Positions 16,259 to 42,589 of a DNA stretch of 43,148 nt are shown in pieces. The notes beneath the pieces are model-generated. The model saw only the letters and a program-made list of their open reading frames with translations, did not search any database and was not told where the DNA came from. The translations under genes and the position numbers were made by a program. The stretch is from a virus (taxonomy: Duplodnaviria; Heunggongvirae; Uroviricota; Caudoviricetes). Where the stretch lies: the IMG/VR virus record IMGVR_UViG_3300026521_000571; one strand, 5' to 3'. The stretch's first letter is position 1, and the number at the start of each line of letters is the position of its first letter.

Positions 16259-17211
16259 TATTCGAAGGGGTTGATCATAAAGTTCAAAGGCTTTATATAC
16301 ACTGGGATATAACTACAGTTTGTAATTTTGATTGTAGTTATTGCTATGCTAAAAAAGAGTACAGTCAAAAAGAACTCTGGTTAAAAGAAGATACCGTTGA
16401 AAATATAAAAACAGTTATAAAGGCTATTTCTATAAGCACATTACCTGTGTTTTTAGGATTACTTGGAGGAGAACCAACTCTTTCAAAACATTTCGAATTT
16501 ATTTTAAATGAGTTCAAAAGAACTCATTTCTTTGAAAAAGAAGATAATAAATTATATATTACTACGAATGGAAGTAAGGAACTATGTTGGTTTATAAACC
16601 AACATAGTTCCGATTTTTATAATAATAAAGTTATGTGGTTATTTTCTTGGCATTCGGCGCATATGTCTGGTAATTCAAATAAAGAATTTAAAGAAAAAAT
16701 AGAAGTTCTTTTGGGGAAGGGTTATAAGGTTAAAGTTAATCTTATGATACCTTTGACTAAAGAAAAGTGGGCTGACTTAAAGGAACTCTCTTTAGAGTTA
16801 ATTAAATTGCAGAAAAATTTTACCAGCCTTATTTTACACCCTCATTTTATATACAAGAATGAACACCAAATATATGAATACCCAAAAGATACAAAAACTT
16901 ATTTTAAAGAAATTTTTGAAAATATCCCAAAAGAGTTCCAAATGACTCAAATGACTCAAAAGACACTTTTAAACGACATTGAAATATTTGAGACAGGTCT
17001 TAATAATTTCAAGGGTTGGGATTGTTATTTAAATAACTATGAGATTAATCTAGGTGCAATTGTATCTAAATTTTGTGTTCAAGAAACAACCAATCTTAAA
17101 AATAATATAACGTTCTTTAAAAAAATAAAAAAAGTGGTTCCAGTTATTTGTGAACATAGTCAATGTTCATGTGATGGACTCTTAAAAATACGAAAAGAAA
17201 AGGAAATATAG
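16249..17211 (+). CDS. Radical SAM protein
   Basis: CNFDCSYC, LGGEPT, ITTNGS, C-terminal CEHSQCSCD. Confidence 0.9.
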   Translation: MAIIFEGVDHKVQRLYIHWDITTVCNFDCSYCYAKKEYSQKELWLKEDTVENIKTVIKAISISTLPVFLGLLGGEPTLSKHFEFILNEFKRTHFFEKEDNKLYITTNGSKELCWFINQHSSDFYNNKVMWLFSWHSAHMSGNSNKEFKEKIEVLLGKGYKVKVNLMIPLTKEKWADLKELSLELIKLQKNFTSLILHPHFIYKNEHQIYEYPKDTKTYFKEIFENIPKEFQMTQMTQKTLLNDIEIFETGLNNFKGWDCYLNNYEINLGAIVSKFCVQETTNLKNNITFFKKIKKVVPVICEHSQCSCDGLLKIRKEKEI

Positions 17212-17942: not shown

Positions 17943-18790
17943 TGATTATTGAAATCAAATTAACGCATTACTGTAATTTAAATTGTAGTTATTGTGTATC
18001 TATGCACTCATCAGATAAAACATTATGTGAGAAAGAGCAATTTGATTTAGAAGGATTTATTAACTTTCTGGATGAGTTCCAGTGCACTGGAACTCATCCA
18101 CGATTTAAAGAAATTAAATTCTTTATTTTTGGTGGAGAACCTTCAACAAGCAAAGATTTAATTCCTCTTGTTAATTATCTAAATAAACTGGTTGATTCAA
18201 ATAATATAATTATACAAACCAACCTCACCAATTTAAGTACTCTTAAAAAAATCAATTGCCTTATCAATATAAGTTGGCATCCGGAATTTATATCATTTAA
18301 AGAATTAATTAATAGGTTAAATAAACTACCTCAAGAAAGAATTAACGAAATAGCCTTTATGGATGTCGATGATAAATATTATAAATATTATAATATACTC
18401 AAAAAACTTTATAAAGTTGAATTTTGTCCAATTATAGAGGATATTGTACATTATGATGGACGTTGGTTGAAAAGATTAAAAGAACTTAAAAATAAAGATA
18501 TTTTTAAAGTAATCCAAAACGACGAACATTTTCATAAATTTAAATCAAATAAAAGTAATTACGATTATTGGGTTAACGAAGAGCATTCTATAGGAAAGAA
18601 ATGTTTTATAAATTACGAAGTATTATTTATTTCAAATAATAAAGTTTATGAATGTTTTAATGATATGTTTTTTAATATCAATGGAATTAATCTTAGAGAT
18701 TATGAGTACATTCCAAAAATTAAAATATGTCCTCATCAGAGATGTTTTTTTGACATGAGATATCAGGAAGAAAATTATGAAAAAAACTAG
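17942..18790 (+). CDS. Radical SAM protein
   Basis: CNLNCSYC, FGGEPS, QTN, C-terminal CPHQRCFFD. Confidence 0.9.
   Translation: MIIEIKLTHYCNLNCSYCVSMHSSDKTLCEKEQFDLEGFINFLDEFQCTGTHPRFKEIKFFIFGGEPSTSKDLIPLVNYLNKLVDSNNIIIQTNLTNLSTLKKINCLINISWHPEFISFKELINRLNKLPQERINEIAFMDVDDKYYKYYNILKKLYKVEFCPIIEDIVHYDGRWLKRLKELKNKDIFKVIQNDEHFHKFKSNKSNYDYWVNEEHSIGKKCFINYEVLFISNNKVYECFNDMFFNINGINLRDYEYIPKIKICPHQRCFFDMRYQEENYEKN
18069..18100. repeat. 32-bp perfect palindrome (GAGTTC-N10-GAACTC type)
   Basis: tggatgagttccagtgcactggaactcatcca. Confidence 0.95.
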
Positions 18791-21309: not shown

Positions 21310-22354
21310 AATCGAAAGTCTTTTTGATTTATATATCAAAAAAGACAAAGACAAAGCAGATACTAGTTTTATAAATTTTATTCAGAATGATTTTACTAGA
21401 AAAGATTTCGAGTATTTAAAAGCACAAGAATATAATAATAAACTGGTTATTGAGTTTAAACCAACTGATAATTGTAATTTTAATTGTAGTTATTGTTGTT
21501 TTCATAATAAAAAATCGAAGGGAATGTCGGAATTGACTTTTAAAAACTTCATTAATTTTTTAGAATACAATATTGAAAATAATATATTTCCACAAGAAGA
21601 GTTTTTTATTTTTATTTACGGTGGTGAACCAACAATGCACCCCAACTTAACTAAATTTATTATTGAATTAAATGAGTTCAAAAGAACTCATAATAAAAAA
21701 ATAAATTTCTTGATACAAAGTAACGGGAGCATGTGGTCTCTTACTAAATTTAAAAAAGAAATAAACATTTTAAAAAATGCCAATGTTAATTTTAAATTCA
21801 GCTTTAGTTACCATCCAGAAGAAGTAAAATTAAATGATTTAATTCCAAAAATTAAATATTTAATTTCTGAGGATGCTTTCGATGTATTAACGTATATGTT
21901 GACCATTTCAAATATTAAGAAAGATATACATATGATAAATTTCTTTGAATCAGCTAATGTTCCTATTTATGTACGTACGATTTTACAAGAGTCTGAGTTA
22001 TTTAATTCAGATGGTAAATTCAAGAAATATAAAAAATATATATCAACAGATAAAGATGATGATTCTTATATTTTAACGACTAAAGATGCAAATAATAAGA
22101 TTATAAATACTAAGATGTCTTTCGAAGACTTATCAACCCAAGGTTATTTGAATTTTAATGGTTATAATTGCAGTGCTGGTATTAATAGCTTTTTAATTTC
22201 TCCTGAAGGTGAAATATATCGTTGTGATATGGATTATTTATATAAAAAAAATAGGCTACATGATGTTAATTCAGTTCAAGAATATAAACCATCTAAATGT
22301 TTAAAATGTACTCATACTTTTTGTAGTATATATTTTAGCGACAAATGGAAATAA
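21296..22354 (+). CDS. Radical SAM protein with twitch/SPASM-like C-terminus
   Basis: CNFNCSYC, YGGEPT, SNGS, CSAG...ISPEGEIYRC, CLKCTHTFC. Confidence 0.92.
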   Translation: MEDNKIESLFDLYIKKDKDKADTSFINFIQNDFTRKDFEYLKAQEYNNKLVIEFKPTDNCNFNCSYCCFHNKKSKGMSELTFKNFINFLEYNIENNIFPQEEFFIFIYGGEPTMHPNLTKFIIELNEFKRTHNKKINFLIQSNGSMWSLTKFKKEINILKNANVNFKFSFSYHPEEVKLNDLIPKIKYLISEDAFDVLTYMLTISNIKKDIHMINFFESANVPIYVRTILQESELFNSDGKFKKYKKYISTDKDDDSYILTTKDANNKIINTKMSFEDLSTQGYLNFNGYNCSAGINSFLISPEGEIYRCDMDYLYKKNRLHDVNSVQEYKPSKCLKCTHTFCSIYFSDKWK

Positions 22355-25811: not shown

Positions 25812-26618
25812 TTAATTTTCTCCATTTCTATTTAAATTTTCTTCTACATCAGCCTGTGCTTCATCAGCTTGTGCTTCATCAGCCTGTGCTTCATCAGCTT
25901 GCTCTTCATCAGCCTGTGCTTCATCAGCTTGCTCTTCATCAGCTTGCTCTTCATCAGCCTGCGCTTCATCAGCTTGCATTGCATCCATAAATGATGTTAC
26001 CAGTATAACTGATGCCACTTTTGCATCTGACATTTCTAACATAGATTGGAATAATAATACAACATAAACTAAAGTAATTATTACACCCCAGAATATATTA
26101 ATATATGACTCTATCCAAAATAAAAAGATAAATCCAAGAAGTATAAACCACAATACATTTAATAATTCTCTTTTTTCTATCAGTGTTTTAGCTTCCTGAT
26201 TAAGCAATATAAACATACTCCAGAAAATCTTTAGATTTTCTCTAGTTGTATCGTACCAATTCCAAAACCAGTTTGATTCCGTATAAATTAAATAGTCAGT
26301 TGACTTTAAACCCAAGTTATACATAACTTTATCTTCATCGACTGGTTTTAACCCAAGCCTATTGGTCAATGCTAAAAAATTCCAATGGAGCATCGCTCTA
26401 TAAGCCCAAGCGAAAGTGATAGGAATGACGAATACACCCATGATTAAAAATATACTAACCATTTCTAATCCGGCACTTATATCACCATGTGGTAATAGAA
26501 TATCTACAACAATTCCAACTGCCATTATTGGCAGTGCTATGAAAACATCTAAATGATATTTTCTAGGATTAATATCTTCGTTGCGAAGATTCGCAACGAA
26601 CTGATCTATGACAAACAT
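25812..26618 (-). CDS. Multi-pass membrane protein with acidic QADE[A/E] repeat tail
   Basis: About four hydrophobic segments; C-terminal pentapeptide repeat. Confidence 0.75.
   Translation of the reverse strand: MFVIDQFVANLRNEDINPRKYHLDVFIALPIMAVGIVVDILLPHGDISAGLEMVSIFLIMGVFVIPITFAWAYRAMLHWNFLALTNRLGLKPVDEDKVMYNLGLKSTDYLIYTESNWFWNWYDTTRENLKIFWSMFILLNQEAKTLIEKRELLNVLWFILLGFIFLFWIESYINIFWGVIITLVYVVLLFQSMLEMSDAKVASVILVTSFMDAMQADEAQADEEQADEEQADEAQADEEQADEAQADEAQADEAQADVEENLNRNGEN
25847..25977. repeat. 15-bp coding tandem repeat, about 8.7 units
   Basis: Units tcatcagc(c/t)tg(tg/ct/cg)ct encode QADEA/QADEE on the minus strand. Confidence 0.95.
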
Positions 26619-29260
26619 TATTCACCTACCTCCGTTTTTAAATCTGTTTCAAGTTCAGGCTCATCATCAACATCTATGACATCTAGACCTTGAACTTCCT
26701 GAACACCTTTTGCTTTTTTAGGCTTCTTCTTCTTTTTGGCCTTCTTCTTTTTAGGCACATTGGCCTTTTTCTCTTTCGGCTCTTCGAAAGTCTCTTGCAT
26801 TTTCTCTTTCACAAGATTATCAGCTATAAATTGATTCTCTTTTTCAATGCAATCTTTACTCTCTTCATCCGAAAGCACCTCAAGTTTTAGTGCTTCGTCA
26901 ACAACTCTAATAGTGACTTTAGATCTTTCATCTAGTTCACCATTGAGTTTAAGTTGAGTTAATTGTGACACTACAAAATCATTTATGAATCTTGTAATTG
27001 GCCTTGCACCCATTGAAGGATCATATGCTTTTGCAGCAATAATCAATGGTGCAGCATTTGACCATACGAGATCAATCTTGTGTTCAGATTTAACCAATTT
27101 AGCCATTTTACTAAGCTCACTATCAGCAATCTCAATAATGTTAGCTAAACTCAACGCATTATAATTAACAATGGCATCAAATCTATTGATCATCTCTGGT
27201 CTCATAAATTCACCAAGATTATCTAGGCTTAGGTTACTGGTCATGAGAATAATAGTATTCTTGAAGTCAACTTCTTTTCCTTGCCCATCTGTAAGACGAC
27301 CAGCATCAAGTACCTGAAGCAACGCATCCATAACTCTAGGATGTGCTTTCTCTATTTCATCAAAAAGTATTACACTATATGGATTATTCCACACAGCATC
27401 TGTCAATTGACCACCACGATCATGACCAACATAACCTGGAGGTGATCCAAATAATCTTGATACAGCATGTCCTTCCATGTACTCAGACATATCGAATCTA
27501 TGTAATGTTTTATCAGTATCGAATAAACATTTAGAGATCGTCTGAGCAGTTAGTGTCTTACCAACACCTGTAGGCCCAAGCAGTAAGAATGAACCAACTG
27601 GTTTATTCGCATTTACAAATCCCAACATAGAGTTCTGAATCACTGAAGTAATTTTATACACAGCATCTTCTTGACCTTTAACAACCTGCATTGTATTCTC
27701 AGGAAGATTTTTATATCTTTCGATATCTTCTTCTTGTGCACTTGCAGGAATACCAGTCCATTTTTCAATAACTGTTTTTATTACCCCCGGATCCATGAAA
27801 TTCAAGTTAGCTCTTGAAGCTTTTATAAGCTCTTCTTTTTGAGCTTTAAGTTCCTCGAGTTTTTCATCCAACTCAGGTAATTTATTAAACTCACCAAGGT
27901 TTATAAGAGTTAATCTTTGATTGATTATCTCTTTTTCTTCTTGATGATTTAAAGCTATCTGATCAATAAGCTCTTTTTGCGCTTCAATATCCGTTTGGAT
28001 ATTTTCAAGATGCTCGAGGCTCTTCTTAAGCTCCTCTTTATCGATTTCATCACCTTCAATCTCTTTCCAGCGAATCTCCATCTTGAGTGCATCAACCTTA
28101 GCTTTAGCTTTACTAAGCTCATCCGGTAAAGCATCCATACGCATTTTAAGGATACTACCAGCTTCTTCAATCAAATCTATAGATTTATCCGGCTGATTTC
28201 TATGCGCCAAGAATTTATTTGACAGTTTAATAGCAGCTACCATTGACTCATCCGGGATAACTATAGAAAAATAATCCATAAATCCCCGAGCTCTCGCTTC
28301 CAAGATATTCAAGACTTGATAGTCACTCATCTCTGTAATTCTTACAGGTTGAGTTCTTCTAGTCATAGCATTATCTTTTTCAACTAGTTTAAATTCATCG
28401 TTAGTTGTAGCTCCGATGAGTCTGCTTGCACTTCTAGCCATAGCTGGCTTCAAAGCATTTTTGAGCAAATCATTACTCATTATTAAATGGAATTCATCAA
28501 TGAAGATTATGCTATCATCCTGCGCTGCTGAATCCATGATACTCATAAGAACTTCTGCAGCCGCTTGGCCTTCACCAACGACTTTAGCAATATCTATTTG
28601 CCAAATACGAGTTCCTAACAACTCCAATGGAATCCCATCTTTTCGAGCTATTTTTTCAGCAAGCCCCTCGACTATAGCAGTCTTACCAGTACCAGCTTCA
28701 CCAATAAGAATTGGATTTCTTTTGGTCTTACGGATAAGTATCTGCATAACCCTTTGAACCTCTTCATCTCTACCAATAACTGGGTCAAGCTCACCATCTA
28801 GTGCCTTTTGAGTCAAATCAACACCATATTTTTCCATTAGCTCAATATTGCTTGAACTATAGAATCCCATATTTGGATTCAGTGGAATTATTTTGGTTAA
28901 AGCTGAGTCAACCACTGTTCTATCAGCTTTTTCATAGATATAAGTTTTAATAATGGTACTAAAGGTACTACTATTATTAATTAAGAATCTTAGTGTTCTA
29001 GGCAAAGCTAGAAACACATCTTCGGATGAGCTTTGAGCTTGTCTAAGCCAATTGATTAGATCATCAGAAGTTCCTTTAATCTTTTTAATTTTAAGATTAT
29101 TTAAAACATGTTCTTGAGCCTCAGCTCCAACTAGTGTTCTAAATAAACTAGTCCCGGCCAAATTAATGGCGAAATTATTTAATACCCAATCACTTGGGAC
29201 TTCTTCGGAAGGCTTCAGAAGTTTTAAAATATCGGCCGATATTTTCGTAAGATTTTGCAT
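26618..29260 (-). CDS. clpB: ClpB-like Hsp100 AAA+ chaperone
   Basis: LDPVIGRDEE, GEAGTGKT, IFIDEFH, PDKSIDL, middle coiled coil, GPTGVGKT, RFDMSEY, GSPPGYVG, FDEIEKAH, GARP; no IGF loop seen. ATG 29260 fits the AAGGA spacing better than TTG 29266. Confidence 0.93.
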   Translation of the reverse strand: MQNLTKISADILKLLKPSEEVPSDWVLNNFAINLAGTSLFRTLVGAEAQEHVLNNLKIKKIKGTSDDLINWLRQAQSSSEDVFLALPRTLRFLINNSSTFSTIIKTYIYEKADRTVVDSALTKIIPLNPNMGFYSSSNIELMEKYGVDLTQKALDGELDPVIGRDEEVQRVMQILIRKTKRNPILIGEAGTGKTAIVEGLAEKIARKDGIPLELLGTRIWQIDIAKVVGEGQAAAEVLMSIMDSAAQDDSIIFIDEFHLIMSNDLLKNALKPAMARSASRLIGATTNDEFKLVEKDNAMTRRTQPVRITEMSDYQVLNILEARARGFMDYFSIVIPDESMVAAIKLSNKFLAHRNQPDKSIDLIEEAGSILKMRMDALPDELSKAKAKVDALKMEIRWKEIEGDEIDKEELKKSLEHLENIQTDIEAQKELIDQIALNHQEEKEIINQRLTLINLGEFNKLPELDEKLEELKAQKEELIKASRANLNFMDPGVIKTVIEKWTGIPASAQEEDIERYKNLPENTMQVVKGQEDAVYKITSVIQNSMLGFVNANKPVGSFLLLGPTGVGKTLTAQTISKCLFDTDKTLHRFDMSEYMEGHAVSRLFGSPPGYVGHDRGGQLTDAVWNNPYSVILFDEIEKAHPRVMDALLQVLDAGRLTDGQGKEVDFKNTIILMTSNLSLDNLGEFMRPEMINRFDAIVNYNALSLANIIEIADSELSKMAKLVKSEHKIDLVWSNAAPLIIAAKAYDPSMGARPITRFINDFVVSQLTQLKLNGELDERSKVTIRVVDEALKLEVLSDEESKDCIEKENQFIADNLVKEKMQETFEEPKEKKANVPKKKKAKKKKKPKKAKGVQEVQGLDVIDVDDEPELETDLKTEVGE

Positions 29261-29292
29261 CTTCAATTCCTTTAAAAATAAATTACAATTAA

Positions 29293-29320
29293 GAGTTAGA
29301 GTTCAAAAGAACTCTAACTC
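29293..29320. promoter_or_regulatory. Inverted repeat (12-bp arms) upstream of clpB containing the GAGTTC-N4-GAACTC motif
   Basis: gagttagagttc-aaaa-gaactctaactc in the intergenic leader; regulatory role is inferred. Confidence 0.55.
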
Positions 29321-29420
29321 AAAGCAAATGGATCCAATTTTGCGTAAGGGAATTTATACGCGTATTATCGAATAAAAAAATTCGACACCCAATACATCTA
29401 TGACCCCAGAGGGAGAGGCT

Positions 29421-29987
29421 TTAATAGCCTCTCTTGTTCCTCCAGAAGTCATAGAAAATGACGCTCTTTGGTGAGAGCTTGTTAAAGCTCCACCAAAGAG
29501 CGAACACTGTCCCTAGAAGGGCACCTAGTCCGACGAGGGCACCGAGAGCCCAAGCAACTGGGTTGTTTATAATGAGCTCCCAGTTCGATGTCACTCCAAA
29601 ATGGAGTGACACAAAGAAAGCGGCGAAAATCCAGTGATCCGGATTTTCGCCATCTTCGCCTCTTTGGGCCTTGTGTTGGAGATAAACTCCGAAAAGGCCG
29701 AGAGCCCAGGCCATAATACCTCTTAAAACTCTTTTCCAGATCGGGCCTTGGCTCGCGGCCGCGAGCCAAATGTTAGCCACTAGGGCGAATGCCCCAGTGG
29801 CTAACCAAGTAATCCCTGCCACCTCTGCATACGCTTGGGCAGTAGCTGCCCAAGCGTAATCGGTCCCTCCGTGACCGATTACAGAAATACCAGAAACCGC
29901 CACGCTGAAAAGTGTGGTCATGACTACTAGAGTCACAGAAGATTTAATCCAGAAATCTAAAGATTTCAAAACATTAATAGCTTTCAT
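29421..29987 (-). CDS. Multi-pass membrane protein; GC-elevated, hairpin-rich gene
   Basis: 188 aa, about five hydrophobic helices, AAGGAG RBS. Confidence 0.8.
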   Translation of the reverse strand: MKAINVLKSLDFWIKSSVTLVVMTTLFSVAVSGISVIGHGGTDYAWAATAQAYAEVAGITWLATGAFALVANIWLAAASQGPIWKRVLRGIMAWALGLFGVYLQHKAQRGEDGENPDHWIFAAFFVSLHFGVTSNWELIINNPVAWALGALVGLGALLGTVFALWWSFNKLSPKSVIFYDFWRNKRGY

Positions 29988-30007
29988 TATATTCTCCTTA
30001 TGAGATT

Positions 30008-30113
30008 ACACCCAATGAAAAGGGCTGCAGCATTACCTGCACTATAATATGTCTATTATTGACAACTATAAAGAACCTACCCGATGTAAGTTCAATAATA
30101 TTATTTATATACT
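30008..30113. repeat. 106-bp direct repeat, copy 1 (divergent intergenic region)
   Basis: Matches 36882-36987 with 5 mismatches. Confidence 0.95.
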
Positions 30114-30171
30114 TAATATATTTATTCTAAAACGAACATATAATAATTAAATTACATTTTAAAGGAAATAT

Positions 30172-31455
30172 ATGTCAAGTACACGAAAGATTATAACAGG
30201 AGCCGCTGGCTTCATTGGAAGAAATTTAACGAAAGCAGTTCTTTTGAACTCAACACAAGATGATACTATTGTATGTATTGATATTCAAGATATGACATCT
30301 CTGGGTTTCGAAGAAGCTAATATCAATGGAGCTAATTTAATACTAATTCAAAAAAATATGAAAGATATAACACCAGATGAATACAATATAATTTTTGATG
30401 TTCAAGAGGACCAAGACGAAGAAGAACAGAAAGAGTTCTTTTTGACTCATTTGGCGAGTTCAGTCGGAGTAGATAAAATCCTAGAATCTCCCCAGGCAAT
30501 TACCGATGATCTAATAATGAACTCAAATTTAATTAATTATTTAAATAATTTACCGGATAATATAACAGGCCGTGTTGTATTTACAAGCTCCAGTGAAATA
30601 TATGGTGAGCAAACAGTCCTCGAAGAAACCACTGATCTTAAAATGCAATCACCGGAAAACTATTTAAGAGGGATATACGCAAGCCAAAAACTTATAACAG
30701 AACATCTATTTTTAAATTCTTTAATTAATTCAAAGACAGATGTAAGAATTCTTAGGTTATTTAGTATAACTGGGCGCGATCAATCAACTGATTTCGTAAC
30801 TCCGAAATTGATTGAACAAGCAGTGAATAATCAAGATATTACTATTTATGGGGATGGTTCACAATCAAGAGCATTTATGCACATCGATGACCTAATAAAT
30901 ATTATTCTTCATGAAGAGTTATTTAGCACTCTTAGTGATGGAACCGATAATAAAATTATTAACGCAGCGAACCCAAGAAATTTAACTACAATTTTTCAAT
31001 TAGCTAATTTAATAAAAACATTAACAGCAAGTTCAAGCGAAATAGTTTTTGAAGATGGACCAATCGGAGAAACATCAAGAATCCCTCAAATCAATAGACT
31101 TAATAAATTCTATAGACCTCAGATAGATCTTTCGACAATTATTAAATCAATAGTCGAGACACAATTCCCAGAAAAAGAACTCAAAGAATTGAATTCAATC
31201 AATATAAATACAACAGAAGTTCAAGAAGATGAAATTGATTACATTGAGTTCGAAATAACTGGAAATACAGAACCCGAAGCAACCATTATAATTGAATGGG
31301 CTGATTCTTCATTGGATTCAACCGAAGCTGATGCCGAAGGAAATTGGACAATCGAGGTTAAAAAATTAAAAGAAGATGTTCAAAATGAAGTGGCTACAAT
31401 TACAGCGCAATTGAATACAATTGTATTCAGCGCAATTAATTTTAGGGTTGAATAG
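30172..31455 (+). CDS. NAD-dependent nucleotide-sugar epimerase/dehydratase fused to a C-terminal bacterial Ig-like domain
   Basis: ITGAAGFIG, HLAS, FTSSSEIYG, YASQK, GDGSQSRAFMHIDD; C-terminal ITGNTEPEATIII...ADAEGNWTIEV. Confidence 0.88.
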   Translation: MSSTRKIITGAAGFIGRNLTKAVLLNSTQDDTIVCIDIQDMTSLGFEEANINGANLILIQKNMKDITPDEYNIIFDVQEDQDEEEQKEFFLTHLASSVGVDKILESPQAITDDLIMNSNLINYLNNLPDNITGRVVFTSSSEIYGEQTVLEETTDLKMQSPENYLRGIYASQKLITEHLFLNSLINSKTDVRILRLFSITGRDQSTDFVTPKLIEQAVNNQDITIYGDGSQSRAFMHIDDLINIILHEELFSTLSDGTDNKIINAANPRNLTTIFQLANLIKTLTASSSEIVFEDGPIGETSRIPQINRLNKFYRPQIDLSTIIKSIVETQFPEKELKELNSININTTEVQEDEIDYIEFEITGNTEPEATIIIEWADSSLDSTEADAEGNWTIEVKKLKEDVQNEVATITAQLNTIVFSAINFRVE

Positions 31456-31478: not shown

Positions 31479-32171
31479 ATGAATGTAATTATCGCGGCAC
31501 ATATCGATGATGTTGAAATAGGAATGGGAGGTATTCTAGATAAACTAGCCTCCTTAAAAGAAGAGACGAAAATAATTATTTTAAGTTCAGGAAGAAAGAG
31601 TCAGTCAGAAACCAACATAGTGCGAGAAGAAATCTTTAGAAAGAACATTTCATTTTTTAAAGGCCGGGAGTACTCTGGTCGCTTCGAGTGCTTTGTCAAC
31701 CCAATGCCGGTTGATTTGGAGTTCCATATTTATAGAGATCAACTAAGAGAATTTCTCGAAGGCACTTATAAAAACATTTTATTAGAAATACCAGCTGATG
31801 AAATTCTTAGAGCATTTACAGTATATCCTGATAATCATAATGATCATAAGATTGCTTCAGAATTAACGGATACTTGTGTGCGTTTGAACTCAAACCTCCC
31901 GAAAAAACCAAATTTGTATCTCAAATATTTTATTCCATCAAGTGCCGGTTTCGATATTCCGAAAAAGAATCTTTTTTATTTTAATTTCAGTTCTTTTGCA
32001 CTCAAGAAGAAGATGATTCAGAATTATAAAAATCTTTTCGATGGTCCATCGATGGATACCAAATATATTAAACTCTTCAATAAAATCCAAGGTCGTTTTA
32101 TTAATAAAAAGTTCGCGGAGGTATTTCATGCCGAATACATCAATGGATACTTTGGTAATTTATTTTCCTAG
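31479..32171 (+). CDS. PIG-L/LmbE-family N-acetylglucosaminyl deacetylase
   Basis: AAHIDDVEIGMGG and DNHNDH motifs; GGAG RBS. Confidence 0.85.
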   Translation: MNVIIAAHIDDVEIGMGGILDKLASLKEETKIIILSSGRKSQSETNIVREEIFRKNISFFKGREYSGRFECFVNPMPVDLEFHIYRDQLREFLEGTYKNILLEIPADEILRAFTVYPDNHNDHKIASELTDTCVRLNSNLPKKPNLYLKYFIPSSAGFDIPKKNLFYFNFSSFALKKKMIQNYKNLFDGPSMDTKYIKLFNKIQGRFINKKFAEVFHAEYINGYFGNLFS

Positions 32172-32820
32172 GAAGAGTTCTGTTGCAACAGAACTCTTCC
32201 GCCAGAATCCAAAAGAAGAAATTCCAGATTTAAATTCACTAAAAGAATTATATAAATACCTCAAATCTCCCAAGGCAATGAAAGTAAAAGAGATAATAAT
32301 TATTGATTTTACAAATCCTATTTTTTCGGAACGTCGATATCCTCGTAAAACTACGAACCTAAAAATTACAAAAGGTATATATAATTTTTTAAAGTATATT
32401 AACCAAACATCCCAGAATTTTCCAAAAATAAAATACGTTTTTTTATCTTCAGTAGGAGTTCTAGACCGATATTTTAATTTACCAGGAAGCTCCCAAAAAC
32501 AACTACGTTATAATCTCGATAAAAAACAGACAGAAGAGTTCTTAAGAACTCAAACGTTTATAAATTATATTATAATTAGATTACCTCTCTGTCCAGTTAA
32601 AAAAGAAAATCTCTTGATAAAAAATATAGGAAAGAGTTCAAAAGAACTCTTTAACTTAGATCTAGGGATCCCAGTACTTGCTATAAATAAAATAAAATTA
32701 TTTTTCGAGGCAATAAAAAATCCGGATAAGAGTGCCGAGGCACTCTTATCCGTCGAGTTCATTACAATCGAAGATACATCCAATCCTGAAAAAACTAAAG
32801 AATTTCTTCTGAGGAATTAA
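32128..32820 (+). CDS. Degenerate SDR/epimerase-like protein
   Basis: YVFLSSVGV, YNLDK, YIIIRLP; no GxxGxxG; start 32128 follows GGAGG. Confidence 0.55.
   Translation: MPNTSMDTLVIYFPRKSSVATELFRQNPKEEIPDLNSLKELYKYLKSPKAMKVKEIIIIDFTNPIFSERRYPRKTTNLKITKGIYNFLKYINQTSQNFPKIKYVFLSSVGVLDRYFNLPGSSQKQLRYNLDKKQTEEFLRTQTFINYIIIRLPLCPVKKENLLIKNIGKSSKELFNLDLGIPVLAINKIKLFFEAIKNPDKSAEALLSVEFITIEDTSNPEKTKEFLLRN
32171..32200. repeat. 30-bp perfect palindrome (GAGTTC-N10-GAACTC type)
   Basis: ggaagagttctgttgcaacagaactcttcc, starting at the last base of the PIG-L stop codon. Confidence 0.95.
32723..32752. repeat. 30-bp inverted repeat with GAGTGC-N4-GCACTC core
   Basis: cggataagagtgcc-ga-ggcactcttatccg. Confidence 0.9.
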
Positions 32821-34576
32821 TAGCCTCTTGGGCTAAATCTTTAAAGACATTCAATAGATGTATATTTGGTGCATCAAAAACATTAAACCCAGCTTTATGC
32901 AAAGCTAAATAACTATTTGAAATTTCAGATAGTTCACTATCCGAAAATCCAGAATTTATTTTCGAGTAATATCTTGTCCCTATTTTAATATCTCCTGTAT
33001 TTGAATCCAAATAATGTATTGTAATTTCAGGTCCTATGAAATTAAGCAACTTATTTAAAACACAATATCTGGATTCAACCCGCAGTTTATGCGAAGTGGA
33101 AATATGACTGAAGATCATTACTGCAGGCCCATCTTCCCTATGCAAAACCCCAAAAGAATACCATGTAAATTTAAGTTGAGTTCGGCCGAGGTATTTTATA
33201 ATTGCTGGCCCATTATCTCGATGCAAAACATCAAACTGGTAGAAATGAAGAGATAATTTTTTTATTCGACCAGTTGATTTAACCTGATGTATTTCAATCC
33301 TAGCCGGTCTATTATCTCGATGACACTTACCAAAAAGAAAATATTGATATCTATAAAAATTAAGATTATCTTCATATACTCTTTTTTCATAAGCAGGCCC
33401 ATCTTCTCGATGTCTATGATTAAATCTATACCATATTTTTTTAACTTGATTGATTTTTCCATAAGAATCAAATATGTAATTTAAACTCGCTGGCCCACCA
33501 ATTCGATGATGTTGACCAAATTTATACCACTTCTTAGTCACTGACAATACTCGTTGCCCAGTATTCTTTCTCGCTATAACAATACTTGCAGGACCATCTT
33601 CTCGATGCAGTAATCCAAATGAATAGAATTCCTTACGATATTCTTCATATTCCTCGGTTATAAACATTCCATGTTTTATCTTGAATTTGTCATAGATATA
33701 ATCTCTCTTGGCTGAAGCACCAAATTTAGACATATTTGATATATGCAAATCAAATGCTTTCTTTGTAAAATGAATACCAAAAAGAAAATATCTAACCTTA
33801 ACAGTCCTATTAGAGAGTACAATATATTCAGCAGGACCATCTTCTCTATGTTTATAACCAAACTGATAAAAATACATTTTTTTAATATCAGAGCCCCTTC
33901 TTTCAACTACAGTAGGACCATTCTCGTTATGCATTTTACCAAATTTATACCAATTATAAATTCTATATATGTGATCAACCACTGGATAAAAATCAATATA
34001 AGCTGGTCCATCCTCTCGATGATATTTATTAAATTGATAATAATCCTCCCTAAAATATTTGGTGTCGTCTTTAATTGAGAGTAATTTTACTGCAGGCGCA
34101 TTTTCTCTATGTTTGAAACCAAATACAAAAAACCAAATTTTAGTTTGCAAGTTCCCATAATCATCTATAACTGCAGGCCCATTTTCATTATGAAAATTAT
34201 TAAATTTTAACCATTGTTGGCTTTTTGCGTTGTTGGTTTTAGTCATGTAAAAAGGATGCTCATCACAATGATCAAAACCGAATTGACAAGGTTGTTTTGC
34301 ATCAGGAGTAATACTCATTTGGCATCCAAAAAAATTTTTAGAATCCGGAGAATCAAATTCAACAAGATAATCATGAAACCTAAGAGGCTTGTTATAATTT
34401 CTACAGAAATCAAAAAATCTCTGAAGTTCTCGATCACTTGATTCGAGATCTAAAAAATATTTTTCAATTAGATTCTCAAAACCACCTGTGAAATTTTCAA
34501 GTATTTGGTTGATATTTGGCCGTAATTTTTCAAACGGCCCAATATCAACCTCCTTTATTTCATTAAATATTTTCAT
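32795..34576 (-). CDS. HREDGPA-repeat protein (about 11 repeats)
   Basis: Repeats HNENGPA, HRENAPA, HREDGPA, HRIGGPA, HRDNGPA etc.; MORN-variant-like beta repeats. Confidence 0.85.
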   Translation of the reverse strand: MKIFNEIKEVDIGPFEKLRPNINQILENFTGGFENLIEKYFLDLESSDRELQRFFDFCRNYNKPLRFHDYLVEFDSPDSKNFFGCQMSITPDAKQPCQFGFDHCDEHPFYMTKTNNAKSQQWLKFNNFHNENGPAVIDDYGNLQTKIWFFVFGFKHRENAPAVKLLSIKDDTKYFREDYYQFNKYHREDGPAYIDFYPVVDHIYRIYNWYKFGKMHNENGPTVVERRGSDIKKMYFYQFGYKHREDGPAEYIVLSNRTVKVRYFLFGIHFTKKAFDLHISNMSKFGASAKRDYIYDKFKIKHGMFITEEYEEYRKEFYSFGLLHREDGPASIVIARKNTGQRVLSVTKKWYKFGQHHRIGGPASLNYIFDSYGKINQVKKIWYRFNHRHREDGPAYEKRVYEDNLNFYRYQYFLFGKCHRDNRPARIEIHQVKSTGRIKKLSLHFYQFDVLHRDNGPAIIKYLGRTQLKFTWYSFGVLHREDGPAVMIFSHISTSHKLRVESRYCVLNKLLNFIGPEITIHYLDSNTGDIKIGTRYYSKINSGFSDSELSEISNSYLALHKAGFNVFDAPNIHLLNVFKDLAQEAINSSEEIL

Positions 34577-36120: not shown

Positions 36121-36180
36121 AATAAAAAAAAATTAACCTATTTTAGGCACCTTGGGCGAAAGAAATCATAGCCCAGATGC
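36121..36180 (-). terminator. Possible intrinsic terminator after the nucleotidyltransferase gene
   Basis: TGGGC/GCCCA and CCTA/TAGG stems followed by a long T-run on the minus strand. Confidence 0.4.
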
Positions 36181-36860
36181 TATGATTTCTTGGATTTCTT
36201 GAATTCGTCTGGGTAGACGAATTCATATGTATTAAGCCAGAAGTCCAGGCCTTTGGCCTGATCAACATATTTCGCCATCGGTGGAATCGTTATCTTACGG
36301 CTCCCCCTCCAACCACCGAGAATATCTAACATTTTCATGTAGATATTCTCGGTGAACGTCACCTGTCGTCGGTCTAATTTCTTGAGGAGGCTGATGCCGA
36401 TGGCGACATCCTCCTCTAAAATCTTGTCACATAATGTGACCTGGAAATCGACTGGGTGGCCGGCCCAGTTGAAAACTCTATATTTATGGAGACTGGTTGT
36501 CCCCATGTATAAATAGCATCCGTTGAAGCTGCTAATCTCGAAGGTCGCCACCCCTTCGAGATATTTAATAGCAGCTTCAAAGATGCCGCTATCCGTTGTA
36601 AAGAAGTCATAATCTGACTCCTGGGTTGTCAAAGATGACCCCGCTAATCGTGACCCTGAAAGAGTTAGACCTAACTCTTTCAGGTTCATTTCAATTTTAT
36701 GCATATCCTCCAATCTGGAGATCGGGTTGATCTCCTTTTTCTCGGTGCCGTACCATGACGCACCGTTTGAAAATTCCGGGAATTCAATCCCTGAATTCTC
36801 AAAATAGTTAACAGCAGCCTCTAAATTCTTTAATAACTTTTTATCATTAATTATTTTCAT
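36180..36860 (-). CDS. Pol-beta-superfamily nucleotidyltransferase; GC-elevated, hairpin-rich gene
   Basis: LSGSRLAG...SDYDF (GS...DxD) motif plus later VDFQV; GGAGG RBS. Confidence 0.72.
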   Translation of the reverse strand: MKIINDKKLLKNLEAAVNYFENSGIEFPEFSNGASWYGTEKKEINPISRLEDMHKIEMNLKELGLTLSGSRLAGSSLTTQESDYDFFTTDSGIFEAAIKYLEGVATFEISSFNGCYLYMGTTSLHKYRVFNWAGHPVDFQVTLCDKILEEDVAIGISLLKKLDRRQVTFTENIYMKMLDILGGWRGSRKITIPPMAKYVDQAKGLDFWLNTYEFVYPDEFKKSKKS

Positions 36861-36881
36861 TATGTCCTCCTTACGGAAATA

Positions 36882-36987
36882 ACACCCAATGAAAAGGGCT
36901 GCAGCATTACCTGCACTATAATATGTCTATTTTAGACAACCTTAAAGAACTTACCCGATGTAAGTTCAATAATATTATTTATATACT
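36882..36987. repeat. 106-bp direct repeat, copy 2 (divergent intergenic region)
   Basis: Matches 30008-30113 with 5 mismatches. Confidence 0.95.
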
Positions 36988-37045
36988 AACTGAAGTAATT
37001 CTAAAAAACAAAGGATTCATGCAACATCAAGATATAGGAAAATAA

Positions 37046-40000
37046 ATGAATATAAGATTAGTATTTAACTCAAGAACTGGAATTCTTCGAGCAGAGAGAA
37101 GCGCTCGCTCGAACCCAAGAATAAAAAAACGGGTTCCATTTAATATGACAAGAAACTTTTGGAGCATCCCAGCGTATTCAATACTTCAGCAAATTTCTAT
37201 GCTGGATATGAAAATTCATAAAAGAAACCCACCTGGATTTCGAAAGGCTGCTAGAAATTACTATAGTCTATTACCACAAGATATTCCATTATATTTATTG
37301 GAGTTTGAGGAATTCTATAATGCTTTTGAAGATTATCTCTGGATTCAAGAACCTCAAGGATTGCGAAGACTTCTGAAGAAAGAAGTCGAGAAAACAATAG
37401 GTGTAAAACCGGCAAGTCAAAAAGCAACAATTGATGGAGTAGCCACAAGTATTTCGATTATTCTTGAAACAGGAACATCTCAATTAAAAGAAAATTTTAA
37501 AAAGCAGATAAAGAAACCATTTGATGTGTACTCAATTTTTTGGATGTATAAGACAGTTGATAAATTCTTTGGAGCGGTTAATAAGGCATCGCTTGTTTTG
37601 AACCCGAACTACAAAAAAATTATGCGAGCCGATCCAAAACGAGAACGCATTCTGAAATATTTTAATGAATCGATGTTGTATAGAAATACCACAAAATCCC
37701 CACGGGAAATCACGTACTCTAATCTTTTGACTCTTTTGAAGAATCAATCACAATCTGGAATAAAGGTTAATCTGTATTCAAATACAGGTGCTCCTTTTAA
37801 ATACATGAACTTCGAGAAATTACTTCTAGAAGATGGTAATGAGCAGTTGGTTGAAAAAGCACTCGTTGTTTATAATAATGATGATAGTTTCTTCGAGTTC
37901 AGAAGTACTTATTATTTCTTCGATCCAGAAGAAGTAAAGAAAAAACACGATGATATTTTTAATTATTTAATGAAGCCTGAGTTGCAAGATTTCATCGATG
38001 GTCTTAGGAACCTCAAAGATAAAAACACAAGCCTGAAAAATAAGGTTCCTGTTAAAAAATTAAAAGAGACAAGTTTTACAGGAACCCTGCAAGAGCATCA
38101 AGAAGAAGCATTAAGTTGGGCTTGGAGTTTAATTGAACAAGGAGCACCAGGTTTAATCCTAGCCGACGAGATGGGCATGGGAAAAGCATTAGAAAACAAC
38201 ACACCGATTAAAATTCCAGGCAGTTGGAAAAAAATTAAAAATATTAAAGTTAATGATTATGTTATTGGTAGAGATGGGTTTCCAACAAGAGTAACTGGCG
38301 TTTACCCACAAGGGATTCGCCAAATGTATAAAATTATTTTTGACGATGGACGTGAAATTGAAGCGGATGCTGAACATCTTTGGACAGTATTTATAGAAGA
38401 GAAAAATCAACAGGTTTCAACTACTAAAGAAATAATGAATTTATTGGAAAATAATAAATCAATATCTATACCGACTATAATTCCAGAATCAAATATAGAC
38501 ATAGAATCTAGATTAAAATATTTAAAATCATTAACTCAACATAGATCTCAAGAAATAATTTTAAATGATTTTGATCAAACCGGTATCAATGAATTAAAAG
38601 AATTAATTTATAGTTTAGGTGGTACATTAAAGATAATCAAAAATAAATTACAGTTTGAGTTCAAAAGCACTCTTGATATAAAAAATATTGAACCATCAAG
38701 AAAAACCGAGGCAACATGTATTTCAGTAGATAATCAAGATAAATTATTCGTCGCAAAAGATTATATTACAACACACAACACTATCTCGACAATTTCTTTC
38801 TTGAGTTCTCTGATGAAATATAAAAATTTCAAAACTATCTTAATTATATGTCCGAGTTCAGTTGTATCTGTTTGGGAAAATGAGCTAGCTCGCTTTGATC
38901 CAAAAGCAGCGAAGAAAATTGGCTCAGGAATCCAAATAATGAGCTATGAAAGAGCCATCCGAAATTCACCTAAGAAAGTAGATTTACTAATCCTAGATGA
39001 AGCCCAGAAGATTAAGAATAATAATACTTTGGCTTTTAAAAACATAAGCTTAATAGAAAAGAAGTTCGTGTGTATTTTAACTGGAACACCGATTGAAAAT
39101 AAAGTCGATGATCTATTTAGCCTCCTTCAAGTAATTAACCCAAGCGCTTGGCATCTATTTAAGATTATGAAAAAATCTTACAAAGATGTAGAAATGGTTA
39201 CTAAAATAAGGGAAGTAATAGATCCGATTTATTTACAACGACATAAGACATCGAATCAATTGAAAGCGAAGATGACTGTAGAAGAAGTTTTCATCCCCGC
39301 TCTTGATATTGAAAAGAAAATAACGAAAGAAATTAAAAAAGTATTCTCTGATAAAATGATTAAATTGAATGCTTCAAATAATCATGATTTTTATCAGACA
39401 CAAGTTGCTTTGACTGGACTTCTACGATTAAGACAAGCGGTTAGTTTGCCTAGTCAACTACCTGATGAATTAATTGAACACTTTGATCCAAAAGTCGGTA
39501 GAGTTGCTCAACATGTTGATCCAAGTAAAGCTAAAAAGTTGGTAGAGATTTATAAAAAAATACATCAGAATAAGCAGAAGGTTGTTGTATTCACTATGTT
39601 TTCTGGGACTATAAAATATCTCAAAGTGCTTCTAGAAAAAAATGGAGCCAATGTATTGACTCTCTCTGGACAAGATAGTAGTCAAAAAAGAAAAATCATG
39701 ATTGAAGAATTTCAGAGACCGGATTCAAAATATGATGTTTTTATAATTATGCTTAAAGCAGGAAATTCTGGGATTACCTTAACTAACGCAAATAATGTTG
39801 TACTCTATGACTTATGGTATAATCCGGCTGTAGTTGCACAAGCACTTGCTAGAGTCCATAGAATTGGTCAACAACTTGATGTTACTGCTTATATATTAAT
39901 TACTCAAGATTCAGTTGACGAAGCAATTAATAAAATATTCTTGAATAAAAATAAATTAATTGATGCTTTTAGTAAACCAAAAGACGCGTTGAAACCAGAT

Positions 40001-40054
40001 CTAAAAAAGAGCGAGATCGCTAATTTTGGAAAGGATTTATTTCAACAAAAATAG
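37046..40054 (+). CDS. SNF2-family helicase/translocase with an intein in motif I
   Basis: LADEMGMGK|intein|T, ICPSSV, LILDEAQKIKN, LTGTPIEN, VVVFTMF, AGNSGITLT, YDLWYNPA...QALARVHRIGQ. Confidence 0.93.
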   Translation: MNIRLVFNSRTGILRAERSARSNPRIKKRVPFNMTRNFWSIPAYSILQQISMLDMKIHKRNPPGFRKAARNYYSLLPQDIPLYLLEFEEFYNAFEDYLWIQEPQGLRRLLKKEVEKTIGVKPASQKATIDGVATSISIILETGTSQLKENFKKQIKKPFDVYSIFWMYKTVDKFFGAVNKASLVLNPNYKKIMRADPKRERILKYFNESMLYRNTTKSPREITYSNLLTLLKNQSQSGIKVNLYSNTGAPFKYMNFEKLLLEDGNEQLVEKALVVYNNDDSFFEFRSTYYFFDPEEVKKKHDDIFNYLMKPELQDFIDGLRNLKDKNTSLKNKVPVKKLKETSFTGTLQEHQEEALSWAWSLIEQGAPGLILADEMGMGKALENNTPIKIPGSWKKIKNIKVNDYVIGRDGFPTRVTGVYPQGIRQMYKIIFDDGREIEADAEHLWTVFIEEKNQQVSTTKEIMNLLENNKSISIPTIIPESNIDIESRLKYLKSLTQHRSQEIILNDFDQTGINELKELIYSLGGTLKIIKNKLQFEFKSTLDIKNIEPSRKTEATCISVDNQDKLFVAKDYITTHNTISTISFLSSLMKYKNFKTILIICPSSVVSVWENELARFDPKAAKKIGSGIQIMSYERAIRNSPKKVDLLILDEAQKIKNNNTLAFKNISLIEKKFVCILTGTPIENKVDDLFSLLQVINPSAWHLFKIMKKSYKDVEMVTKIREVIDPIYLQRHKTSNQLKAKMTVEEVFIPALDIEKKITKEIKKVFSDKMIKLNASNNHDFYQTQVALTGLLRLRQAVSLPSQLPDELIEHFDPKVGRVAQHVDPSKAKKLVEIYKKIHQNKQKVVVFTMFSGTIKYLKVLLEKNGANVLTLSGQDSSQKRKIMIEEFQRPDSKYDVFIIMLKAGNSGITLTNANNVVLYDLWYNPAVVAQALARVHRIGQQLDVTAYILITQDSVDEAINKIFLNKNKLIDAFSKPKDALKPDLKKSEIANFGKDLFQQK
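38186..38779 (+). mobile_element. Class 3 mini-intein (198 aa) with decayed LAGLIDADG remnant
   Basis: Starts with Ala (ALENNT); block B ADAEHLW, block F TCISV, block G TTHN/T give the W-C-T triad; splicing restores DEMGMGKT. Confidence 0.9.
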
Positions 40055-40085: not shown

Positions 40086-40883
40086 ATGATGAGTTCAAAT
40101 ATAAAAAATAATAAAGTTATTATACTTGAGCAGGCTGTACTATCTGATGTTGAAATAATTGAAGAGAGTACTGTTGGTTCTCAATATAAACTTAAATTTA
40201 GAGCTAAACTACAAGAAGCAGATGTGATAAATAATAATAGACGTGTTTATCCGGCAGATACCCTTCAAGCAGTTTACGCACAATTGAAGCCGAAGGCTTT
40301 GGAACGCAAGTTAGTTGGTGAAATGGATCACCCACAACCAAGTGGAGATAATGCTAGTAAAATCAAGAGATCAAGTACGCTAGCTCTTGATAGAGTTTGT
40401 GTACTCTTCGCTGATCTTGAGTGGGATGGAAATTCTATTTTTGCAGTTTGTGAAACACTAAGTAATACTAAAGGAATGGATCTATATGCTTTATTGAAAG
40501 ATAGAGTGACAATAGGATTTAGTCTTAGAGCGTTCGGTGAAACTAGAAAAAGAGCGGATGGTGTTACTGAAGTTCTAGCTAAAGGAATAAAAGCATTAAC
40601 ATATGATGTTGTTGCTAATCCAAGTCACGATAATTCGGTTATCCTTGAATTCCTTGATGAAGGGACTAATATCCAGAGTGTTCTTCAAGAATTAACAGAG
40701 TCTTATAATAATATAAACAAAGTCGCATTGGAAGAAAGCTCGTCAATTCAAGGCGAATCTGAGGTTCATTGTTTCGGAAATATATGTATCAAAGCTCCTT
40801 TACAAGAGGCCATTGATTATATAGTTGAAGAAGCAGTCCAAATGAACACAGGAATCAAAAATATTAAAGTCCAGACGCTATAA
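40086..40883 (+). CDS. Prohead core protease, T4 gp21-like
   Basis: QEADVINNNRRVYP, GEMDHP, GFSLRAFG, YDVVANPS. Confidence 0.9.
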   Translation: MMSSNIKNNKVIILEQAVLSDVEIIEESTVGSQYKLKFRAKLQEADVINNNRRVYPADTLQAVYAQLKPKALERKLVGEMDHPQPSGDNASKIKRSSTLALDRVCVLFADLEWDGNSIFAVCETLSNTKGMDLYALLKDRVTIGFSLRAFGETRKRADGVTEVLAKGIKALTYDVVANPSHDNSVILEFLDEGTNIQSVLQELTESYNNINKVALEESSSIQGESEVHCFGNICIKAPLQEAIDYIVEEAVQMNTGIKNIKVQTL

Positions 40884-40975: not shown

Positions 40976-42589
40976 ATGCCTTTAAACACATCAACACTGT
41001 TGTTGGAAAACTATGGTTCTTTCATTAAAGATCATGAAACTCTTTTTGAAGATTCAGTGAGCGCAGCTCAAGTTATTTCTGACGATAGTTATTTCGAAAT
41101 GTATGTTGATAAACTTACAAGTGGTCTAGAAGAATCAGTAGTAAGTAGAATTAAACCTATTCTTGAAAGAGAAAGAGAAATGTACATAGAAGAGTCAGGG
41201 TCAATTTTGACATCTCCTCAAGCTATTGCGTATGCTATTTCTTCTTTCCCAATGTTAATTAACATCTATGCTGAGCCATTGCTAAGTAAAGTTGTAACAG
41301 TTTACCCAACTGATAAACCAACAATGTCTATTCCTAAACTTACTTGGATATCTAAAATTATAGATCACGCTGGTAATGAGACAGAAGTAGCATTCCCTAC
41401 AGCTAGACAAATGGTTAGACCAGATATGGTAACATTGACTCTTGCTTCTAAAACAGCTAATCTATTTAATCTTCTTGGAGATATTAGCCCAAGTGATTTC
41501 AGAATCTCTAAAAGAAATTTCAGAGTTAGAAATATTAGATCAGCTTCAGATGCAGAATCAATTCTTATCAGTGTTCAAGCGGACGCTAGAGGAAGCATAA
41601 TCTCTGAGTTCGATGTTCAAGCTGTGGATAGTGATGGAAATGCTATTATAGTTGATGGACAACCAGCTTTCGATGTTTATAAAATCCAAGGTCAAGTTGA
41701 TTTTGATTCAGGTGCTTTAACATGGTCAGTAATTCAAGTAGTTCAAATTGCTGGTTCTGAAAATGGTGCAGATAAATTTGATGCAGGTGAAATCGATGTT
41801 AAATTTAGAGTTTTCGGAAACGGAAATGGTAGAGGTGTAGTTAAATCTAGACCAAAACAAGAAATCATCGATATCGATATGGATATTGAAGATAGTTTCG
41901 AAGTAGAAAATATCGAAGAAATCATCCAAGATTGGAAATCTGTTTATAGTGTTAATGTCCTTGCAGAGTTGAAAAACTATGTTAAAGATCAAATTAAACT
42001 TAACAGAGACTTTGAAATTGCTGATAAACTAGAAGAAAATATTGCATTGGCTAAGAAAATTGGACAATACCAAGAAATCGATCTACAAGCATTCGTAGGA
42101 AGCGCTACAGATGATAAAGGTGTTAGACCAACTACAGTTCAAGATATCTTCAAAAACATCGTTCCTCAAATCATGGCAATGGTTGAAAGAATGAGAAGAC
42201 AAAACAACATGGATGTTCAATACCTAGTTTGTGGTATAGACGTAGCAGTTGTATTGAAATCTCTACAAGAATTCGCTGTTAAAATGGATGGAATGACTGG
42301 TGGAACAGGTCTATCTGGAACAACAGGTGACTTTGCAAAACTAGAGATTGTATCTTCTTATGCAGTAGAACCTTCACTACTTCACTTCGTAACTGGTGCT
42401 AATACACTAAGCAGAAGTTCAATCGTTGAGGTTATGTATAAGCCGTTGTACATCATCAATGAAATTACAAATTCAATTCGTAGAACATTCATAAAATCGC
42501 GAAACTGGATAGGAATTGTAAGAAGTTCTGGGATCGCCACAATAAAACTCAAAAACTACGAAATGTACTTCGCAGCAGCAGGTAGATAG
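40976..42589 (+). CDS. Major capsid protein, T4 gp23-like
   Basis: 537 aa directly after the protease, AGGAG RBS, gp23-like layout, followed by a strong hairpin. Confidence 0.82.
   Translation: MPLNTSTLLLENYGSFIKDHETLFEDSVSAAQVISDDSYFEMYVDKLTSGLEESVVSRIKPILEREREMYIEESGSILTSPQAIAYAISSFPMLINIYAEPLLSKVVTVYPTDKPTMSIPKLTWISKIIDHAGNETEVAFPTARQMVRPDMVTLTLASKTANLFNLLGDISPSDFRISKRNFRVRNIRSASDAESILISVQADARGSIISEFDVQAVDSDGNAIIVDGQPAFDVYKIQGQVDFDSGALTWSVIQVVQIAGSENGADKFDAGEIDVKFRVFGNGNGRGVVKSRPKQEIIDIDMDIEDSFEVENIEEIIQDWKSVYSVNVLAELKNYVKDQIKLNRDFEIADKLEENIALAKKIGQYQEIDLQAFVGSATDDKGVRPTTVQDIFKNIVPQIMAMVERMRRQNNMDVQYLVCGIDVAVVLKSLQEFAVKMDGMTGGTGLSGTTGDFAKLEIVSSYAVEPSLLHFVTGANTLSRSSIVEVMYKPLYIINEITNSIRRTFIKSRNWIGIVRSSGIATIKLKNYEMYFAAAGR

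Follow-up and report, generated by a model that had tools for sequence, protein, structure and literature searches.

The window, a stretch of 43,148 nucleotides of viral DNA, contains a membrane-protein gene whose coding sequence is tiled with perfect hairpins, which raises the question of where these hairpins come from and what keeps them there. It comes from a source contig of 107 kb, is a section of the genome of a T4-like large phage with AT-rich DNA (~30% GC), and encodes a T4-type portal (376-2595), a head protease (40086-40883) and a Gp23-like capsid protein (40976-42589). The capsid protein had no match among GenBank phages, and the nearest relative that we found is a 281-kb viral contig, G001, with a capsid identity of 61%. 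The membrane-protein gene and the cassette upstream of it had no match in the viral-contig and genome-contig collections searched. The window also encodes a SNF2-family helicase with a Hint (intein-like) insertion (37046-40054), a fusion of an NAD-dependent epimerase with a C-terminal Ig-like domain (30172-31455) and a protein built of HREDGPA-type repeats (32795-34576).

A protein-coding gene under purifying selection

The gene (29421-29987, minus strand) encodes an orphan protein of 188 residues and has a GC content of 0.49. An earlier note on this DNA had described a frame kept open in spite of the hairpins and a GC content above that of the neighbouring genes, and both descriptions hold. 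The GC content at third codon positions (GC3) is 0.50, against 0.15-0.30 in 39 other ORFs of the window. The frame is open in four of four alleles, with 5-18 stops in each of the five remaining frames. The three further alleles (L001, L002 and L003) come from one metagenome assembly, and their products share 90, 75 and 92% amino-acid identity with the window protein. The dN/dS ratio among the four alleles is 0.21-0.31: the membrane protein is under purifying selection, and an accidental ORF at this position is ruled out.

Four to five segments of the protein are hydrophobic. The count of five transmembrane segments proposed in the earlier note is plausible, but no more than that because the AlphaFold model is of low confidence (pLDDT 49). 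Searches of Pfam, PHROG, Atlas and 1.84 billion representatives recovered the protein's own alleles alone and no distant relative, and we found no sequence or profile similarity to known families of phage membrane proteins (superinfection exclusion proteins, holins). The one weak match, P0006, is a repetitive sequence that aligned over 29 residues, and it was dismissed. The four alleles are block mosaics of one another, with near-identical flanks. As far as sequences can tell, such a mosaic pattern in four alleles, three of them from one sample, would fit a gene for host interaction or superinfection exclusion on which diversifying pressure acts.

Hairpins along the coding sequence

Scans for perfect stems recovered all seven stems listed in the earlier note, at the coordinates given there, and three more (29556-29585, 29856-29882 and 29952-29967). 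Their coordinates refer to the minus strand, except for one palindrome, which has no strand. An 8-bp stem lies across the stop codon (29413-29433) and is kept in all alleles. The 12-bp outer stem at 29462-29502 and its inner stem are mostly kept in all alleles, with G-U changes, and the 11-bp stem at 29622-29651 is the best conserved, with a compensatory A-T/T-A change and also G-U changes among alleles. The perfect 10-bp stem at 29589-29611 is allele-specific, only five of its ten pairs being Watson-Crick in L001 and L002. At the place of the 7-bp stem at 29556-29585, L002 has another perfect stem, via five changes in one arm, and at the place of the perfect 13-bp stem at 29830-29858 it has other hairpins in a shifted register. 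There is also a 10-bp outer stem with an inner stem (29772-29805), a perfect 10-bp stem (29856-29882), a 7-bp stem that owes its existence to a serine codon switched between AGT and TCT in comparison with L002 and L003 (29952-29967), and a perfect 22-bp palindrome with a TCT/AGC serine switch, a probable template-switch scar (29748-29769).

Seven perfect stems of at least 8 bp were observed where 0.55 were expected. Relative to dinucleotide shuffles, the 575-nt interval (29413-29987) has a folding z-score of -17.1 in the sense and -13.2 in the antisense direction. With shuffles of synonymous codons, which preserve the protein and the codon usage, the z-score is -8.6 to -11.8. Both comparisons give values far below zero, where the earlier note had named a value near zero as its refutation. 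The stems are almost all Watson-Crick and the folding excess is nearly strand-symmetric. The loops are arbitrary, some having zero length, and none of the 16 four-base loops is of the GNRA or UUCG type. The comparison of GC3 at paired and unpaired sites gave no difference from shuffles and is uninformative. The hairpin region had no match in Rfam.

Hairpin density follows the cassette, not the protein

The gene is the first ORF behind a cassette of 131 nt (30002-30132, minus strand) which is repeated in the window at 36876-37006 (minus strand, 90% identical), in line with the earlier note, which had placed it first behind a 106-bp element. The cassette contains a promoter-like motif, TTTAGAAT..TATAAATA, at about 30102-30131, followed by small leader hairpins in series and an AAGGAG ribosome-binding site. 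A third copy, on contig L004, precedes a gene of the MYG1/UPF0160 family. G001 also has the cassette, with a different leader and a common upstream motif, TTTAGAAT-N11-14-TATAWA, which is shared with the window, occurs 14 times in G001 on one strand only, and also heads tRNA clusters. This motif was not found in RB49 or CP220.

We infer that the cassette is a promoter, and its cargo of orphans, tRNAs and ClpB suggests an early one. The match to the -35/-10 consensus of Escherichia coli sigma-70 is 9/12, which is at chance level. The motif might be read as a promoter of the Campylobacterota type (TTAAG[G/C]-N19-TATA[A/G]T), a reading for which we found no confirmation in the literature. If TATAAATA is read as a T4-type late promoter, it has no tie to virion genes, and the sequence is common in the AT-rich DNA of this phage. 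In an allele of the second cassette and its gene (L007:145-235), about 90 extra bases separate the TATAGT box from the hairpins upstream of it, and the gene behind is still structured.

Hairpin saturation follows this promoter-like cassette and not the membrane protein. The second cassette precedes an unrelated, likewise saturated gene for a protein of 226 residues (36180-36860, minus strand; GC3 0.53; z -15.8/-17.7). The two genes behind cassette copies are the two outliers among the 41 ORFs of the window, with a folding excess of -0.12 and -0.15 kcal/nt; none of the other ORFs goes beyond -0.058. The MYG1-like gene on L004 has a z-score of -10.2, and the ClpB-like gene downstream of the membrane-protein gene, in the same probable operon (26618-29266, minus strand), is moderately structured (z -5.5). 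The 268-aa gene that follows it contains a 15-nt tandem repeat (25812-26000).

The same association was found in G001, where the first ORFs behind the motif have a mean folding excess of -0.074 kcal/nt, against -0.014 in other ORFs (p=4e-5, 11 genes; p=6e-4 without two genes near tRNAs), and a GC3 of 0.39 against 0.25. Averaged over 17 sites, the excess begins at the motif and is about 700-800 nt long, and at distances of more than 120 nt upstream folding is close to background. Where a unit consists of a single gene, the excess ends with that gene. The strongest saturated genes reach -0.09 to -0.18 kcal/nt, and no ORF of RB49 or CP220 has a folding excess below -0.075. Among 18 bacterial MYG1 homologues the z-scores range from +0.3 to -4.0, whereas the two phage copies reach -7.8 and -12.0. 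A moderate folding excess, with z-scores of about -5.7 at low GC, also appears in two more MYG1-like genes of viruses (L061 and L062), which may represent further lineages with the trait. Saturation is not universal behind the promoter: in G001, ClpB, which lies directly behind it and is unstructured, and an AAA ATPase have at most a leader hairpin, so not every transcript from this promoter needs stems.

Soluble genes behind the same promoter are packed with hairpins like the membrane-protein gene, so the translational pacing for membrane insertion suggested in the earlier note is not supported.

On the minus strand of G001 the motif also heads GC-rich non-coding stretches, at about 102200-102550, 117800-118150, 216750-216890 and 277950-278320 (loci L018-L031). 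These contain tRNA-like pieces and are possibly undescribed small RNAs; ARAGORN reports two tRNAs with unassignable anticodon loops in G001, at 216758-216831 and 277981-278052.

Stem density is conserved while stems turn over

The window allele and L002, which are 75% identical, have in common 51 of 145 confident pairs, and L002 carries hairpins of its own in shifted registers. In the consensus fold, double-sided changes affect 7 of 188 pairs. The turnover is complete between the two phage MYG1 orthologues, which have 52% amino-acid and 39% third-position identity: they share five predicted pairs (of 111 and 163), and both are tiled with stems. The same block of core genes is found close to both copies, and their GC3 is 0.43-0.53 in genomes of 30-33% GC, at third positions that are saturated with changes. 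In L007, an allele of the 36180-36860 gene, folding is kept through compensatory and one-arm changes.

We compared the real alleles with pseudo-alleles carrying an equal number of synonymous changes placed at random. Of 14 comparisons, 12 show stronger folding in the real allele, with z-scores of -2.8 to -6.2 on the sense strand. Folding of L002 is retained on the sense strand (z -4.2 to -4.8) and not on the antisense strand (-1.3 to -1.8). The region around the start codon (-30 to +30) has a GC content of 0.21-0.27 and is the least paired. Among stem-breaking transitions on the sense strand, the ratio of G-T to A-C is 46:29, while unpaired sites have 104:123 (p=0.024, for events that are not independent).

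These results divide the earlier note's proposal that the structure is under selection. Some constraint exists, as real alleles outdo pseudo-alleles and both density and GC3 of the MYG1 genes outlast saturation, but it does not bear on a specific conserved fold, which is unlikely because density is conserved while individual stems turn over. The covariation among homologues that would mark such a fold is missing from the seven double-sided changes and from the five pairs shared by the MYG1 orthologues. The suggestion of a dual coding and structural RNA fails likewise on the lack of an Rfam match, the low share of pairs common with L002 and the absence of GNRA and UUCG loops.

Origin of the stems

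Allele-specific perfect stems coincide with clusters of 5-8 changes in one arm. In the palindrome at 29748-29769, one arm is identical to that of L002 and the other differs at 8 of 11 bases, and in the cases from L002 and L007 the differences per arm are 0/5, 0/5, 1/4 and 3/1. Five switches between TCN and AGY serine codons separate the four alleles of the membrane-protein gene, and on inspection pairing is created or kept by four of these switches. This pattern points to template switching, in which hairpins are created and maintained by clustered multi-base changes in one arm (PMC8794818, PMC8604942), a mutational source that the earlier note had left out of account. Template switching alone would explain why the stems are both perfect and nearly strand-symmetric. 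The mechanism is not proven, because the excess over a point-mutation null is modest: new perfect stems numbered 4 against 1.1 and 3 against 1.0 in three directions of comparison, counts reached by one to three of 60 nulls, with no excess in the other three.

The process seems to be lineage-wide. Perfect stems of at least 12 bp occur 44 times per 100 kb in the window and 19 times in G001, but RB49 has only 0.6 and CP220 3.9. Relative to RB49, this lineage has a 30-70 times higher density of perfect palindromes. A dyad, GAGTK...MACTC, occurs inside genes with two spacings, with 26 and 10 matches in the 43-kb window, 2 and 1 in G001 (280 kb), and none in RB49 or CP220. Examples are found at 16506-16529, 21672-21691, 29293-29320 and 32631-32652, and at 12584-12611, 12880-12911, 18069-18100 and 32171-32200. 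Perfect palindromes are common among the copies, each with flanks of its own. The dyad may be a protein site and at the same time a seed of template switching. At L002:1103-1225, the 5' part of ClpB precedes an inverted and diverged copy of the same sequence, with arms of about 50 nt, which truncates the ORF at 108 aa. Either the DNA folded back on itself long ago or two alleles were joined in the assembly.

Mutation and selection in the maintenance of stems

We give about an even chance to a combination in which the stems originate by template switching and are retained by selection for folded transcripts. It would apply to a class of exchangeable accessory genes that stand immediately behind a promoter, repeated and probably early, and whose coding sequences are tiled with short hairpins. 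The comparison of alleles shows the one-arm changes, which we attribute to short-range template switching during DNA synthesis: in an imperfect repeat, one arm would serve as template for the other, so that a perfect stem arises from one multi-base event. The process appears unusually active throughout the lineage. Selection on the protein filters the events, as is seen in the alleles, where the frame is open and the changes are mostly conservative. Among the transcripts of this promoter, stems would be kept and GC-rich ones favoured because any fold with little single-stranded RNA would be beneficial, with the start region remaining AT-rich and more open. What matters would be the density of stems and not their identity.

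Selection on the transcript is favoured by the GC3 of 0.43-0.53 at saturated third positions, since unbiased arm copying alone would be expected to let GC3 drift towards about 0.2. The G-T bias on the sense strand, the sense-only folding of L002 and the AT-rich, open start region are further hints of an effect on the RNA side. Against it stand the near strand symmetry, the almost exclusively Watson-Crick stems, the lack of GNRA and UUCG loops, the unsaturated ClpB and AAA ATPase of G001, and an excess of new perfect stems over the null that is just modest and not seen in every direction. The G-T bias is weak, and deamination or damage of the exposed non-template DNA strand would also yield it. 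The high GC3 could stem from a GC-rich donor pool.

The likely benefit would be that the earliest and most abundant mRNAs are shielded from single-strand-specific attack, by host ribonucleases, toxin RNases, RNA-guided type III or type VI CRISPR systems, or Rho. Protection from RNases or RNA-targeting defence, which the earlier note had listed among several functions, is our best functional guess and the most economical one. The spacers of type III CRISPR systems are concentrated in the stretch that follows early phage promoters (PMC13575424), and structured RNA is protected against cleavage by RegB (PMC3014915). On the other hand, spacer acquisition by type III systems is attracted by hairpins in DNA (PMC8860593), and this counts against a benefit from CRISPR evasion. 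We propose only tentatively, and with more doubt than belief, that sequence-independent hairpin tiling armours promoter-proximal mRNAs against RNA-guided or single-strand-specific nucleases, as a protein-free counter-defence fed by template switching. The nucleases resisted possibly include the phage's own MYG1-like exonuclease.

The same stems could have accumulated under mutation pressure without any function, if strong transcription raises template switching, stems seed more stems, and weakly constrained genes gather the scars. The near strand symmetry, the arbitrary or zero-length loops, the lineage-wide palindrome excess, the complete turnover of stems and the sparing of conserved genes behind the promoter all agree with this. 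In yeast, quasi-palindrome mutations were observed only under high transcription (PMC3820800), and template switching is known to alter proteins without adaptive cause (PMC8604942). However, GC3 near 0.5 at saturated third positions would require an added GC bias, the sense strand has a mild preference for G-U, and RB49 genes behind sigma-70-like promoters are at background level (mean -0.008 kcal/nt). We regard such function-free accumulation as the main rival, credible but well below an even chance. Selection might alternatively act on the DNA, where cruciforms or a folded displaced strand would absorb supercoiling, limit R-loops, or protect single-stranded or mini-circle modules. The stems are short for cruciform extrusion, and the open start region, the sense-strand bias and the unstructured promoter-led genes of RB49 also make a role in DNA unlikely, even if Watson-Crick stems that are strand-symmetric and have short loops, in an interval that is a cassette-bounded module, are what it would predict. 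By analogy, the PeSL modules of RB49 form mini-circles (PMC2839356).

We consider it very improbable that the genes were imported, already structured and GC-rich, from another reservoir and merely parked behind the promoter. Their GC contrasts with that of their neighbours, and some of the closest bacterial MYG1 matches are in genomes of 48-53% GC, but 18 of 18 bacterial homologues are unstructured, the phage copies have diverged to synonymous saturation near the same core block, and new stems are still arising within alleles. A specific functional RNA fold overlapping the ORF, or ribosome pacing for membrane insertion, has in its favour the strong z-score and compensatory pairs, few as they are; with no Rfam match, shifted registers, few pairs common with L002 and the same trait in soluble genes, we give these readings the least credence of all.

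Relation to known systems and implications

Protein-coding sequences with extensive pairing are also found in the genomes of Leviviridae and in the mRNAs of type I toxins. There, packaging or the control of translation depends on specific folds that are conserved, whereas the stems described here are exchangeable and nearly strand-symmetric, lack RNA tetraloops and belong to a double-stranded DNA phage. The PeSL (promoter-early stem-loop) cassettes of RB49/phi1 T4-type phages (PMC2839356) appear analogous in their repeated AT-rich promoter-like cassette, stem-loops, Shine-Dalgarno sequence and swappable orphan genes. In RB49, however, the hairpins are in the cassette and the cargo genes are unstructured, whereas here the cargo genes themselves are saturated. 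The likeness to template-switch mutagenesis lies in the multi-base clusters in one arm, the instant compensatory changes, the amino-acid by-products and the possible link with high transcription (PMC8794818, PMC8604942, PMC3820800). In the published cases, from 39 yeast genes and from RNA genes, the events are single and scattered, whereas here the whole coding sequence is tiled, the affected class is defined by a promoter, and density outlasts the full turnover of stems. In the part of the literature that we covered, we found no account of promoter-linked saturation of coding sequences with exchangeable hairpins.

The sets of alleles, together with the unstructured bacterial MYG1 homologues, make the parts of mutation and selection in the origin of hairpins directly testable. 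If the stems are only scars, the lineage would offer a natural case of transcription-linked template switching that rewrites genes, and the membrane protein would have been diversified in multi-residue steps. If selection keeps the stems, these phages would tune a regulon-wide, sequence-independent property of their mRNAs, with replication slips as raw material and a counter-defence written at synonymous sites.
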